This document shows positions 1,624-7,828 of a stretch of 14,425 bases of DNA, one piece after another. The stretch lies in IMG/VR virus record IMGVR_UViG_2537561977_000008; one strand, 5' to 3'. Every line of letters starts with the position of its first letter. Within the stretch, counting starts at the first letter, position 1. This stretch comes from a virus (taxonomy: Duplodnaviria; Heunggongvirae; Uroviricota; Caudoviricetes). The notes beneath the pieces were generated by a model that saw only the letters and a program-made list of their open reading frames with translations, searched no databases and was not told where the DNA came from. The translations under genes were made by a program, and so were the position numbers.

Positions 1624-1663
1624 AGGTAAGTCACACTAGGTGTTTTTTAGTTGATTTTATAAA

Positions 1664-1762
1664 TGCACAATAGTGCACAAATTTGCACAATTTTTTTGAA
1701 CGACTTTTTACCCTTCCGGCCTGCGTGGCGGCTGGATCCGTCAAGGATCCGTGCGTGCACAA
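1664..1762. repeat. Four direct copies of TGCACAA in helical phase; candidate protein-binding array (terminase/cosB-like or operator)
   Basis: Copies at 1664-1670, 1674-1680 and 1684-1690 are spaced exactly 10 bp apart; a fourth at 1756-1762 is 72 bp (about 7 turns) further on. The region is AT-rich and non-coding, and also contains a GGATCCGT direct repeat (1734-1741, 1745-1752) and a near-palindromic A7-CGCGC-T5 (1761-1777). Confidence 0.5.
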
Positions 1763-2063
1763 AAAAACGCGCTTTTTCTACGAGCAGGTGACGGGGGAAC
1801 AGCCCGCGTTTCAGGGGGTAAATAGCATTCCCTGAACGATGTCGCAGAGATACAACAGAATGGCTGTATTTCTCACGCTGAGCGTGAAAAAGACGTGAGG
1901 GCTTTTGATTTGATGGGGTGAAAGGTAAGGCCGTCAAAATCGCACTGAGACGGCGAGAATATGCAGTCAACGAGGTGGGATTGCGTAAGAGTCTGACTGT
2001 CGATGATGGCAATCAGCAGGAAAGCGTCGTGAAATTATCTGACTGATACAGGAGCTGGAGAGT

Positions 2064-2088
2064 CGGGGCATAAATTTTTTATGCCCCG
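2064..2088. terminator. Stem-loop (CGGGGCATAAA-ttt-TTTATGCCCCG) 27 nt downstream of the portal stop
   Basis: Read directly: 11-bp stem with a 3-nt loop. No clean U-tract on either strand, so it may be an RNA-stabilising hairpin, a terminator for the leftward Q transcript, or part of cos. Confidence 0.3.
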
Positions 2089-2114
2089 GCGAAGCAGCAG
2101 ACAAGCGAAGCGCG

Positions 2115-3134
2115 TCAGGATGTGGGCTGGGTGTCTAACAGTGCGTAAGGGTTAAAGCGGATCACCTCTTCGCCAAGCCAGTCATTGATGTGCTTCATGG
2201 CCTCCATGACGGGCATCAGCTCGTTAATTGCGTAAACCCGCGCGGCCTTCTCCACATCACCAAACGCACTTTTTTCGCCCGGCATCGCCCCCATCAGTTG
2301 CGGCGGAACGCGGTGCGCAGCCAGCACATCATCACGGGATGCCGCCTTAACATTCATGAACTCATCCTTTGCGGTGATCTGCTGGAACGGCAAAATTTGC
2401 ACCCCCTCTTTGCCCCCGTTGGGCGCATGAATGAGCACGTTTTTAAACGCACCACCACCACGTGCCCCCTGTAGCGTTTCTTTCAGGGAGTCCATGCTTT
2501 CGCGGTTTACCTGCGCTGCACCGATGTAGATGATGCACCCGGCGTGGGATCCGTTGTCGTAGTACAGTTTTCTGAACATGTCCGCCGAATGAGAAAGGCT
2601 GGCCGAGAGTAATGCGCCAAGATATTCCGGCATGCCGTAGATTTCCTGGTTAATATCCGGATTCATCAGGTGGCACACTTTGCCAGGACGAAACTGAAAC
2701 GCATCCTTGCCATCCTGCACATACCACCATGATTCAAGATCGCTTCCGCGTCGCATGTATTTCGCCAGGGCGTGCCGTAATTTAAGCGGTTCGCCGAGCA
2801 TATTGCTCCGAAGCTCAAGGAATGCGTTACCGAACACAAACCAGTCCAGCGCCAGCGCCGAGAAATCCTGCCGGGAAAGCAGCGGGTGCGGAATATAGCA
2901 GCCGAGCAATACATTGCGCTTAAAGTAAAGCGCAGACTGATGCCAGGACGTTTGCCGGGCAGCTCTTGCCAGACCGTACCAGTCCACCGGGGTTTCATAC
3001 CACCGCCCGTTATCAGCACAGTACATATTGTCCAGCAGGTCATGCCCGGTCAGGCGGTAAGGACCATCAAATGTGAATGCACTGAGCGACGATTCTTTCC
3101 TGAGCGCATCAGCGAGATCAATGCGTGAACTCAT
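2115..3134 (-). CDS. Q: Portal protein (P2 gpQ-like), 340 aa
   Basis: Long minus-strand ORF. The start is chosen at the internal ATG (MSSRIDLADAL...) so that it does not overlap the upstream terminase gene. Size and position (downstream of terminase large, next to the cos-side end) match P2 Q. Confidence 0.85.
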   Translation of the reverse strand: MSSRIDLADALRKESSLSAFTFDGPYRLTGHDLLDNMYCADNGRWYETPVDWYGLARAARQTSWHQSALYFKRNVLLGCYIPHPLLSRQDFSALALDWFVFGNAFLELRSNMLGEPLKLRHALAKYMRRGSDLESWWYVQDGKDAFQFRPGKVCHLMNPDINQEIYGMPEYLGALLSASLSHSADMFRKLYYDNGSHAGCIIYIGAAQVNRESMDSLKETLQGARGGGAFKNVLIHAPNGGKEGVQILPFQQITAKDEFMNVKAASRDDVLAAHRVPPQLMGAMPGEKSAFGDVEKAARVYAINELMPVMEAMKHINDWLGEEVIRFNPYALLDTQPTS

Positions 3135-3159
3135 GCGCACTTTTTTATTTTTCTGCTCA

Positions 3160-4912
3160 TCAGAACTCCATAACCGTGAAACGCTCGTTTTCTCCTTCGC
3201 CGCCAATCGGTTCGTTAATGACAGCAAGCATGGTTGCCCACGCAAGGTCGCCGTGGCTGATCCCCCTCGCGCGGTCCGTTTCGTAAGTGATAAAACCGCC
3301 CGGTGTTTTCACCTTACGCACGGCGTTAAAGGCCGCAACCAGCTCGCGTTCGGCGCGATCGTATTCCCACCGCCCGGCACGCATTATTTGCAGCATTTTC
3401 AGTACCAGCGACCGTTTTGATGACAGCGTGAAGGTGTAAGGGATGGCGGCGGGAAAAAACCGTTTCACTATCTGATAGACGGCATCCCCGTGCCCGCCCG
3501 TCGCATCAATGCCGATGTGTTCCACGTTGTAGCGATACGTGAACTCTTCAATAACTCTGGCCTGCTCTTCAAAATTCCAGCCCCTGAACGCGTCGCGTCT
3601 CCACCGTTCTGAAACGACTACCAGGAACAGCCGGAGGAACCACCACGGACACAGCGCCGCTGTCGCCGTTACCACTGCTGCCGTTTGCGTCATACCCAAT
3701 CCATACCGGACGATTCCCCATCGGGCGGGGGGCAAAGGGTTTCCAGTCTTTCCAGTCGTCGTATCCGTCAACACCGCAGCCAATCAGGATATTCAGGTTA
3801 AATGCCGATTCCCCTTCGCGGACAAACTCACACATATAGAGATTGCGGAACTCGTCTTCGGTGTTTTCATCACGAATTTCATCAATATCGGTGTGTTTCC
3901 AGCCGTGATTAACCACATCTTCCAGCGTGACAATTTGCCGCCACGTCCGGTCAGGGCAGATAAGCCCGTTATGCAGCGTTTTCCAGTCCACAGAAAAACG
4001 CTGGCGTTTATGCGCGGCCTTTTTCTCGTTCCAGCGGTCGCCGTTCCAGTAGGCGTATGCCTCGTGCGTTTCGGTGGATGGCGTGGAGAAGCAGGTGCGC
4101 CGCAGTCCGCTGAGGGTTGCCATAGCGCCAGCCACCTTGCGCAGTTCAGCAAAGCGACTGACCCAGAAAAATTCATCAAAATAAAAATTGCCCGTGTAAG
4201 ATTGCGCCGTCGCAGCAGAAGTGCCGAGAAAATGCATCTCTGCGCCGTTGGAGAGGATGATTTTATCGCCCCCTTTCAGCTCCACATCGACTTCAGCCGC
4301 GGCCTTCTGAATAATGCTTTTAAACTGGAACGCCTGACGACGCGACGCAGACAAAAAAATCTGGTTACACTGGTAAGGTTGTGCCACATCGTCACGCAGC
4401 GCCATCAGCAGTGCTTCCTGTGCAAAATACCAGGTCGCCCCAATCTGTCGGGATTTCAGGATCATCCTGTTACGTATCCCGGCTTCCCTGCAAAGCGTCA
4501 GGGAGTCAAACCAGCCCCGCTGATGCCACTCCAGCCTGCTGATGATTTTTTCCCGCAGTGCGGCAATCTGTTCCGGCGTGAAATGATTTTTGAGTTTTTT
4601 CGCCCGGCCTTTCTTTCCTGTGGCCGTCGCATCCGGCTGGCCATCATGCAGTTTTTTAAGCTGCCGGGTCAGCAGGTCTATTTCCTTAAAGTCACCACCT
4701 GTTTTATTCTGTTTTTCAGTAAGCTGGATGAGGCGCGCATCGATGGACTGCGTGACACGCTGCACGGGTGGCGTTTCATCCCACTGGTCGCGTTTTTTCC
4801 ACGCATAAATCGTGTTCGGGTTTATTCCCATCAGACGTGATATTTCTGCGGGCGGATAACCCTGCCAGTAAAGTTGCCGCGCACGCTGGCGCACAAAAGC
4901 GTCCTGAATCAT
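3160..4912 (-). pseudogene. P: Terminase large subunit (P2 gpP-like ATPase/nuclease), split into two frames by a 1-nt indel in a homopolymer run
   Basis: The N-terminal 447-aa ORF (3569-4912) matches recalled P2 P (ILKSRQIGATWYF, NQIFLSAS, FLGTSAATAQSY, FSTPST, NRPVWIGYD). The C-terminal 207-aa ORF (3160-3783, other frame) carries the rest (YNVEHIGIDATG...HGDLAWATM...MEF). The frames switch at the CCCC run on the + strand at 3581-3584. Confidence 0.85.
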
Positions 4913-5927: not shown

Positions 5928-6977
5928 ATGAATCTGGTGATGTCAGATATTACCCGCAACAAGCTGGGTTGCTATATGGCGCAGCAGGCGTCGCTTAACA
6001 ATATCCCGGTTTCTGCACTGGTATCGCGATTTACCGTGGAACCTGCGGTGCAGCAACGTTTTGAAAACGCCTCAAAGGATAGCACCGAACTTACAAAAAA
6101 TTAACGTGATCGGCGTGACCGACCAGAAAGGCGAAAAATCCTCCTGGACACCACAGGACCGATTGCACGCACAAATACCAGTTATGACGGAACAAAACGC
6201 CGTAACCCGAATAACGTGGTTGATCTGAAAAACCGCAAATACCAGTGCGAACAGGTGAGCTACGACACGTTTATTTCGTATCCGCAGCTTGATGCCTGGT
6301 CGGCACACAGCGATTTTCAGTCCCGCATCAGCGCACAGATTGCCCGACAGGTGGCACTTGACCGCATCATGATCGGTTTCAACGGCACATCTCACGCGGA
6401 TGAGTCCAACTTCAGCACCAACAAGCTGCTTCAGGACGTTAACGTGGGGTGGCTGGAGCACATCAGAACCAATGCCAGCGAGCGCGTAATGAATGACGTG
6501 ACGCTGACTTCCCGCAACATGGACAACACCGTGGCGCACGCGGGTAAATACGCGAACCCTGATGCACTGGTACAGGACGCGCGCTCATCTCTGCTGGATG
6601 AATGGCACAAGGAAGCTGACGACCTCGTGGTGATTATGGGGCGCAACCTGTTTAACTCGCTGCGTCTGCCAGTGCTGAACAGCATCAGCGGCCAGAATCC
6701 CAATGCGGAATTACTTGCCGGGCAGCTCATCCTGTCATCGCGCACCATTGGCGGGCTGGGTGTGTTCCTTGCACCGTTCTTCCCGGATGCAACGATGCTG
6801 ATCACCTCATTCAACAACCTGTCGATTTACTGGCAGAAAGGTTCAATGCGTCGTCTGATGAAAGACGAACCGGAATACAACCGCATCGCCACCTACCAGT
6901 CCATCAATGACGCTTATGTCGTTGAAGACTATGGCAAGTGCGCGATGGTCACTGGCCTGAAGTTCGCCGACAGCTAA
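5928..6977 (+). pseudogene. N: Major capsid protein (P2 gpN-like) with two compensating 1-nt indels in A-runs 38 nt apart
   Basis: AAGGAG sits 10 nt before ATG 5928. Frame 0 reads MNLVMSDITRNKL...FTVEPAV then hits TAA at 6102-6104. The +1 frame carries INVIGVTDQKGEK (P2: INIVPVSEMKGEK), and frame 0 resumes with ILLDTTGPIARTNTS...KYQCEQ... through to 6977. The shifts are at A6 (6095-6100, one A too many) and A5 (6134-6138, one A too few). Confidence 0.85.
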
Positions 6978-7022: not shown

Positions 7023-7828
7023 ATGATTACTCCTGCACAGCAACACTGGCAGAACGTGATGGCACAGCGCGCAGGCCGGGCGAATGAAGGTGTGGACCAC
7101 GCCGCGCGTACCGCGCATGAAGAGGTGCTGTATCGTCTGCGTCTGGCACAGGCCCGGCTTAAGGGCGTACAGGCCAGAAGCGCGAAAGCCGACATCAAAA
7201 AAGCGTTGTTGCCGGACTTTTCCGGCTGGATTGAGGGAACGCTGGAGGCTGACGCGGGCAACAGGACGAAGTGATTGCCACGCTGATGGTGTGGGCGATT
7301 GACTGCGGCGATCTTCCGCTTGCGCTGCGTATTGGTGCGTATGCGGTCCGTCACAACCTCATCATGCCGGATAACTTTGGCCGTACTGCTGCCACAGTGC
7401 TGACCGAAGAAATCTGCAATCCGGTACTGACGCAGGCCGGGACGGATGCCGACGCGGATTTGTCCGTCTTTATCGAACCACTGGACACACTTTGGGAAAT
7501 TGTCGCCAACCAGGATATGCCGGACGAAGTGCGCGCCAAATTATGCAAGGCGTGCGCCTTTGCCCGCCGTGGCCTGAGCGATGCGGACAGCATGGCCTCA
7601 TCACTGAAGCTGCTGCGCGAAGCGATGCATCTGAACCAGAACGCAGGTGTGAAACGCGAGATTGCAACCCTTTCCCGCGCCCTGAAAAAAGCCGATTCCG
7701 CAGCCGCACCAGAAGACGCCAGCGCACAGCAGGCGCAGGACGAAAGCAGCGAAAGTAAAAAGACAACGCGGAAGCCTGCAACACGAAAACCACCGCGACG
7801 CAGAAGGCGAAGCGCGGTTAACGACTGA
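7023..7828 (+). pseudogene. M: Terminase small (endonuclease) subunit (P2 gpM-like), frameshifted by a 1-nt deletion
   Basis: GGAG is 7 nt before ATG 7023. ORF 7023-7274 (MITPAQQHW...LEADAG) continues in the -1 frame as QQDEVIATLMVWAIDCGDL...DMPDEVRAKL... to 7828. This is co-linear with recalled P2 M (MTSPAQRHM...GKGAQDDILMTVMLW...ADMPDEVRAKL). The shift is at the GGG run at 7256-7258. Confidence 0.8.

Follow-up and report, generated by a model that had tools for sequence, protein, structure and literature searches.

Organization of the locus

We analyzed a stretch of 14,425 nucleotides from the virus record IMGVR_UViG_2537561977_000008 (hereafter the window), in which the segment at positions 1640-2114, between small cargo genes and a portal gene, carries four phased copies of the heptamer TGCACAA. 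It was concluded that positions 1664 to approximately 1829 are likely to constitute the cohesive-end (cos) packaging site of a P88-like prophage of the P2 family, in which the repeat array is joined to a cleavage region about 30 nt past the fourth repeat. By its sequence, the window represents a P88-type prophage of the P2 family (genus Xuanwuvirus), with blastn matches to P88, P88_4B11, 500465-2 and others at 91-97% identity. The segment at 1640-2150 (511 bases compared) was 100% identical to that of E. coli FDAARGOS_943, and the region was matched in 1181 of 5426 complete E. coli genomes (about a fifth). The gene order runs from A, which lies outside of the window, through ParM and Plasmid_stab_B, a ClpX-zinc-finger protein and small cargo genes to the cos region, followed by Q, P, O, N and M. 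The portal protein gene Q (348 aa) occupies 2115-3161 on the minus strand, and the family of gpM corresponds to Pfam Phage_term_smal. The region is bounded by the cargo hotspot on the gpA side and by the 3' end of Q, beyond which P, O, N and M follow; this is where P2-family phages have their cos. A cargo hotspot between gpA and gpQ that adjoins cos has been described in P2-like phages (PMC9122126).

The four TGCACAA copies, designated R1 to R4, were found on the plus strand at 1664-1670, 1674-1680, 1684-1690 and 1756-1762. R1, R2 and R3 are spaced by exactly 10 bp and R4 begins 72 bp past R3 (approximately 6.9 helical turns), which bears out the phased arrangement recorded in an initial annotation of this DNA made from its letters alone. 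The heptamer as such is not enriched, with seven occurrences in the window against 4.0 expected and with 24 of 200 shuffled sequences also reaching seven. R1-R3 formed the sole triple equal-spacing array of any 5- to 7-mer across the 14.4-kb window, and a 7-mer triple of any kind at 9-12 bp spacing was encountered in 1 of 1000 first-order Markov sequences of equal length. The array is thus notable because of its arrangement and not because of the frequency of TGCACAA.

The region is non-coding, as had been proposed initially. The small open reading frames at 1663-1791, 1683-1835 and 1918-2046, together with those on the minus strand at 1967-2104 and 1647-2012, showed no codon-position bias among 69 related sequences, and they were rejected as genes given that the variable sites were evenly distributed across codon positions. 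An Rfam scan of the whole window at E <= 1 returned zero matches, and no promoter-like site was found among the competing signals examined in the region.

Several further elements lie within and beyond the array. The T7-GA run directly after R3 completes a segment at 1684-1700 on the plus strand (TTTGCACAATTTTTTTGA) that is nearly invariant across genera, and the spacer between R3 and R4 holds a conserved block at 1705-1722 (TTTTTACCCTTCCGGCCT) that was recovered in the cross-genus alignment. The direct repeat GGATCCGT noted in the initial annotation is present at 1734-1741 and 1745-1752, as is the A7-CGCGC-T5 element at 1761-1777. Two copies of TCTGACTG also exist as had been described, although they are located at 1992-1999 and 2038-2045 and not within 2021-2046; this pair is a two-copy 8-mer of the sort expected by chance, and its conservation outside of the genus is absent. 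The first GGATCCGT copy, TCTGACTG and the CGCGC-T5 part are specific to the lineage, and they are probably incidental. It was also noted that each GGATCCGT copy contains a GATC (Dam) site (1735-1738 and 1746-1749). Within 1734-1752, only the GGATC of the second copy, approximately 7 nt before R4, is kept across genera of TGCACAA-type phages, and this site is absent in P2, 186 and P4.

From 1830 to 2063, the interval between cos and the portal terminator is a genus-specific non-coding spacer that holds the TCTGACTG copies. It is followed at 2064-2088 by a perfect 11-bp hairpin (CGGGGCATAAA/TTTATGCCCCG) with T-runs on both strands, which is likely the terminator of the leftward portal and terminase (P-Q) operon; the tQ terminator of P2 has the matching placement.

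Shared geometry with reference cos sites

The arrangement of the repeats was compared with the cos sites of P2, 186, P4 and phiRSA1. Relative to the cos nick, the TGCAY repeats R1 to R4 were located at -123, -111, -101 and -29 in P2, at -124, -111, -101 and -29 in both 186 and P4, and at -129, -110, -100 and -29 in phiRSA1. The corresponding offsets in the window are -123, -113, -103 and -31 when counted from G1787, and -121, -111, -101 and -29 when counted from C1785. The ends of P2 (PMC3931495) and of phiRSA1 (PMC5694545) were experimentally determined. For 186 and P4, the nick positions were taken from the annotation or the ends of the records. The ends of these two are known to have been mapped in classical work.

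The cos sites of P2, 186 and P4 have 19-nt 5' cohesive ends and a 55-bp conserved core (Ziermann and Calendar 1990, cited in PMC3931495 and PMC5694545). The fourth repeat and its A-run (TGCATTAAAACC) form the left part of this known core, and the three upstream repeats lie outside of it. R4 with its A-run (1756-1767, plus strand) is the counterpart of TGCATTAAAACC in P2, P4 and 186, and the alignment to the P2 and 186 cos sequences suggested in the initial annotation recovered the same layout of three repeats plus one. In the literature accessible to us, which does not extend to the primary paper (Ziermann and Calendar 1990) or the main reviews, descriptions are confined to the 55-bp core with its fourth repeat and leave out the upstream triple; the triple, with its constant distance of 71-72 bp to the core, may already have been described. 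The reference GenBank records of P2 and 186 carry no annotation of the TGCAT repeats.

Like the window, P2, 186 and P4 have their site between a variable cargo hotspot and the 3' end of Q, with three phased TGCA-core repeats, a fourth copy with an A-run 72 bp on, and a G-rich GGYGA...GGGG...AGC sequence approximately 30 nt past the fourth repeat. They differ in the repeat word, which is TGCACAA in the window and TGCAT(T/G) in the reference phages, in the R1-R2 spacing (10 bp versus 12-13 bp), and in the distance from R4 to GGYGA (31 nt versus 29 nt). The cohesive-end sequence also differs and the flank in the window is of the GCGCGC type; the cohesive ends in the window are predicted. Similar to the window, phiRSA1 combines a GGTGA start with upstream repeats (-129, -110 and -100) and a fourth repeat 29 nt before the nick, whereas its repeats are of the TGCAT type, its R1-R2 distance is 19 bp, and its host and cargo layout are different. 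The site in the window is thus the P88-lineage version of an already known P2-family cos and not a new kind of system. As a separate observation on P2, the annotated leftward old-tin transcript (record 33424-33479) starts approximately 25-30 bp from the first TGCAT repeat, and the -35 region of its promoter would overlap the repeat array by our estimate, which was made without a scan.

To assess how general this layout is, we examined the neighborhoods of portal genes with one genome per species, which yielded 70 Q-downstream regions. An unbiased search for any 5-mer with three copies at successive spacings of 9-14 and 9-12 bp, followed by a fourth after another 66-78 bp, found matches in 21 of the 70 regions, compared to 1 of 140 controls on the P-gene side and 1 of 70 controls in the opposite orientation. 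A TGCAY-specific search, which also demanded GGYG..G at 26-35 nt after the fourth copy, was matched in 19 of the 70 regions and in none of 210 controls. The R3-R4 distance among these 19 loci was 72 bp in 17 and 71 bp in two, and their taxonomic span extended from Enterobacterales to a Rhodocyclaceae genome. Several relatives (e.g. L101, L105 and Klebsiella phage 3LV2017) pair TGCAC-type repeats with the P2-type sequence GGCGAGGCGGGGGAGCAAG at +29.

Other repeat words were also encountered downstream of the portal gene. A Gammaproteobacteria metagenome-assembled genome (L161) has GTTACC at 12 and 10 bp with further copies 67 and 76 bp on, and a Rhodocyclaceae metagenome-assembled genome (L170) has ATTACC at 12 and 10 bp with a further copy 76 bp on. 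The latter also has a TGCAT-type array and a cos-like block.

Conservation among relatives and carriage by a satellite

We found that the homology among 70 distinct P88-like IMG/VR sequences sets in exactly at R1, while all of the DNA upstream varies, and most E. coli matches, among the matches listed, also begin at 1662-1664. R1 is therefore the left edge of the conserved cos module, with variable cargo upstream, and R2 follows 10 bp past it; the conservation of the repeats in related prophages, on which the initial annotation had made its reading depend, was upheld. In a comparison across Citrobacter, Trabulsiella, Symbiopectobacterium, Enterobacter, Pantoea, Mixta and Yokenella (portal identity 66-81%), the sole blocks kept were R1-R3 with T7-GA, 1705-1722, GGATC near 1745, R4 with its A-run, and GCGCGCAGGTGACGGGGGAACAGCCC.CGC. 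Beyond approximately 1830, only the terminator hairpin before Q is conserved outside of the genus. Within the P88 group, 1784-1823 and the terminator were the least variable parts, and GCGCGCAGGTGACGGGGGAACAGCC, with a minor-allele frequency of 0.2%, was the least variable segment among P88-like sequences and is kept across genera. An 18-column alignment insertion next to cosN was considered as a cohesive-end duplication and rejected, as it was due to the unrelated sequence L079. In a related prophage of E. coli NRZ14408, the element ISEc12 (IS21 family) is located between cos and the portal gene (L183, 5751-8053), which indicates that the spacer from cos to Q tolerates insertions.

The module was also encountered outside of complete prophages. 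E. coli 600468 (NZ_CP025849.1; L172) carries an element of approximately 10 kb that shares only 1664-1829 with the window, at 78% identity. Its products include Icd-like, toprim-primase, integrase and ogr/Delta-like proteins, genes for a terminase, a portal or tails are absent, and the element is a P4-like satellite. Its TGCACAA copies at 6001, 6011, 6021 and 6093 (10, 10 and 72 bp apart) reproduce the geometry of the window, and GGTGACGGGGGAACAGC at 6124 follows R4 by 31 nt. The sharing of the cos module with P4-like satellites that exploit the terminase of their helper is a trait of the P2 family, and P4 carries the equivalent module with TGCAT-type repeats; in both cases the satellite is of the type that matches its helper. 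In P4 and P2, cos is the only shared region (PMC9122126). It was noted separately that a MazEF pair is also located within positions 1-9700 of L172, together with a 1272-nt gene annotated as 'P2 family phage major capsid protein'; it is uncommon for a satellite to bring a P2-type capsid gene of its own.

Because a satellite must copy the packaging signal of its helper and little else, the shared stretch delimits the functional cos, from R1 to approximately 25 nt past the G-rich block, and places the repeats within it. The satellite homology stops in the right flank GCGTTTCAGGGGGTAAATAGCATT (1806-1829), which marks the right edge of the functional site. Taken with their position at the left edge of the conserved DNA and the geometry shared with reference cos sites, this carriage identifies the phased repeats as a conserved part of the packaging signal. 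The cos region that the initial annotation had placed between the cargo and Q of a P2-like phage is in this way supported by gene order, geometry and the satellite.

Position of the predicted cohesive end

The conserved cos-like block covers approximately 1780-1812, and the cleavage region is most likely GGTGACGGGGGAACAGCCC within 1785-1805 on the plus strand. The predicted cohesive-end (cosN) segment would span 1787-1805 by the sequence register and 1785-1803 by the 29-nt distance rule. We favor this position because it lies at the expected distance from R4, falls in the most conserved block, is connected to the P2 type by intermediate forms, and agrees with GGTGAGGCGGGG, the start of the phiRSA1 end. 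The mapped ends of phiRSA1 are GGTGAGGCGGGGTCCCAAC (PMC5694545). The combination of R4 and its A-run at 1756-1767 with GGTGACGGGGGAACAGCCC 31 nt later and with intermediates leading to the P2 type corresponds to the core of a P2-family cos. The left flank of the cleavage region (1778-1786) reads CTACGAGCA in the window and in FDAARGOS_943, versus CTGCGCGCA in all of the 76 other P88-like sequences. An exact scan of IMG/VR recorded the CTACGAGCA variant in one contig compared to the canonical form in at least 120. In the P88_4B11 record, the 6 nt CCCGCG that border the predicted cohesive end on its right are missing.

A proposed packaging mechanism

By analogy with lambda cosB, the small terminase gpM would bind R1-R4 as an oligomer and would bend or wrap the approximately 92 bp that they span. 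The large subunit gpP would thereby be set at a fixed distance from R4 and would nick approximately 29-31 nt beyond it, such that its staggered nicks would yield 5' cohesive ends of approximately 19 nt. The terminase may then stay on the cargo-side end (the right end of the P2 map), which would enter the capsid first, because all of the shared elements are located on the cargo side of the cut and at most about 25 nt beyond it. The accessible literature contained nothing on which P2 end is packaged first.

The cos of lambda comprises cosQ, cosN and cosB, with R elements bound by gpNu1 and a site for the integration host factor (IHF). It is like the window, as a matter of general knowledge, in having the cleavage site beside an array of repeats for the small terminase, with one element near the cut and others past a bendable spacer; the repeat length and spacing differ. 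P2 packages monomeric circles, so a cosQ-like termination element may not be needed.

A broader proposal, which we put forward as possible rather than probable, is that the TGCAY array of three repeats plus one could represent a previously undescribed form of cosB, a 'molecular ruler' shared by the P2 family as a whole, with a gpM oligomer that would wrap approximately 92 bp and set the cleavage and a repeat word (TGCAT versus TGCACAA) that would determine which satellite a helper can package. Its basis is the R3-R4 distance of 71-72 bp and the nick 29 nt past R4 from enterobacterial to betaproteobacterial phages and satellites.

Evaluation of the assignment and its alternatives

Several observations weigh against the assignment of 1664-1829 as cos and of the cut near 1785. 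The two registers, which put the nick before G1787 (sequence) and before C1785 (distance), differ by 2 nt, and the nick positions are uncertain by approximately that amount. Aligned without gaps, 1787-1805 agrees with the P2 cohesive end at 13/19 positions, and several chance matches in the G+C-rich window were as good; this identity was rejected as non-specific evidence and the cosN call therefore rests on its context. No phage record found in the searches starts or ends at the predicted site, and the P88_4B11 record (LR595891.1) begins within the R3-R4 spacer, at a position corresponding to 1709. The otherwise invariant GCGCGC flank bears two substitutions here (G1780A and C1783A), because of which the window copy may be a weakened or not fully functional cos. 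The array was found within 1.5 kb of Q in only 19-21 of the 70 loci, and a sequence search of solved structures found no relative of gpM. For the other 51 loci, cargo inserted between cos and Q, degeneration of the repeats, or different words such as those of the GTTACC type may be the reason. Cargo does lie between cos and Q in phiRSA1 and phiCTX (PMC5694545).

Among the alternatives, the best surviving is that the region is a cos site in which the repeats are bound by a protein other than gpM, such as a nucleoid protein of the host or a different phage protein that gives the DNA its shape for the terminase, which itself would recognize only the core by the cut. We consider this unlikely. It gains from the status of gpM as a predicted binder, from the T- and A-runs after the repeats, which could bend DNA, and from a TGCA core that is nearly equal in enterobacterial and betaproteobacterial phages even though the gpM proteins of the P88 and P2 groups share only 36-40% identity. 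The repeat word, however, varies by lineage (TGCACAA, TGCAT(K) and the GTTACC type) and travels with the matching satellite, which is better explained by a phage-encoded specificity factor than by a host protein. In the R3-R4 spacer, no exact IHF consensus was seen by eye, an inspection made without a tool scan, and the closest match, in the T7-GA region, has a spacing of N5 rather than N4. A superficial comparison of gpM proteins with repeat type offered nothing decisive, as all were homologous over their full length and the TGCA repeat core was common to them.

A cut within the R3-R4 spacer, at approximately 1709-1731 and flanked by the four repeats, was judged to be very unlikely. The initial annotation had pointed to GCGTGGCGG (1723-1731, plus strand) as resembling the start of the 186/P2 cohesive end, and it does match positions 2-10 of the 186 cos, with 11/19 over the full cohesive end. 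The conserved block at 1705-1722 and the start of LR595891 at the equivalent of 1709 also fall in this interval, and a record from the authors of LR595891 for a P2-type phage has its start precisely at cos. The paper describing P88_4B11, however, states no method for setting genome starts. Across genera 1723-1740 is variable, and this variable stretch of the spacer includes GCGTGGCGG, which also lies to the left of R4. In P2, 186, P4 and phiRSA1 the nick is instead found 29 nt rightward of the fourth repeat, and a strongly conserved homologue of the cohesive-end segment occupies the matching position in the window. The resemblance noted initially thus stands as a partial match, GCGTGGCGG is not supported as the cleavage site, and the predicted cut is placed approximately 60 bp to the right of it.

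Least probable of all is that the repeats serve the neighboring genes as an operator or promoter of the cargo (which the initial annotation had offered as an alternative), as a cargo terminator formed by an R2/R3 hairpin and T7, or as the parC of the ParM/StbB pair at 1-567: direct repeats phased at 10 bp, about one helical turn, are a common feature of parC sites and of operator arrays, the genes of ParM and a Plasmid_stab_B protein lie immediately upstream, much as a parC lies near parM and parR-like genes, and a terminator-like hairpin was flagged at 1673-1688, but the array is tied to cos and Q rather than to parMR, being kept with many unrelated cargos and present both in phiT5282H (no partition gene annotated in the 2.5 kb upstream) and in the satellite L172 without parMR annotated in the flanks examined, while a scan of 1400-2300 found no promoter-like site and terminator-like matches at chance level only, and the R2/R3 hairpin (-6.1 kcal/mol; z = -0.67) is no more stable than shuffled sequence. 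The parC, operator, promoter and terminator candidates were rejected on these grounds.

Neighboring genes and state of this copy

The left end of the window was also characterized. Positions 1-567 encode the C-terminal part of ParM together with a ParR-like protein (Plasmid_stab_B), which form a plasmid partition pair of the actin type directly after the replication gene A; the annotations of P88, P88_4B11 and FDAARGOS_943 contain this pair as well. The cargo at 631-1623 comprises a 110-aa protein whose sole Pfam match is the ClpX C4 zinc finger, a 75-aa protein without a family, a DUF7446 protein and a 61-aa zinc-ribbon protein.

Compared to FDAARGOS_943, with which it is otherwise 99.8% identical, the window has approximately ten single-base indels (3147, 3571, 5083, 6094, 6133, 7253, 7785, 8059, 8582 and 10427) and none within 1640-2150. 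These disrupt the frames of the terminase P (stop at 3569), the capsid N (stop at 6102) and the small terminase M (near 7253). Because P, N and M are annotated as intact in FDAARGOS_943, the indels are likely assembly errors rather than biology.

Implications

These results fix the position of the packaging signal for a very common type of E. coli prophage and correct its likely cut site, and R1 marks the edge of its cargo and defense hotspot. The geometry of the array provides a simple and testable rule for locating cos in P2-like prophages and their satellites, and the repeat word would predict the packaging compatibility of helper and satellite. The same rule would be useful for the design of cosmids and transducing particles, which now depends on the cos of P2 and P4 (PMC9942202).

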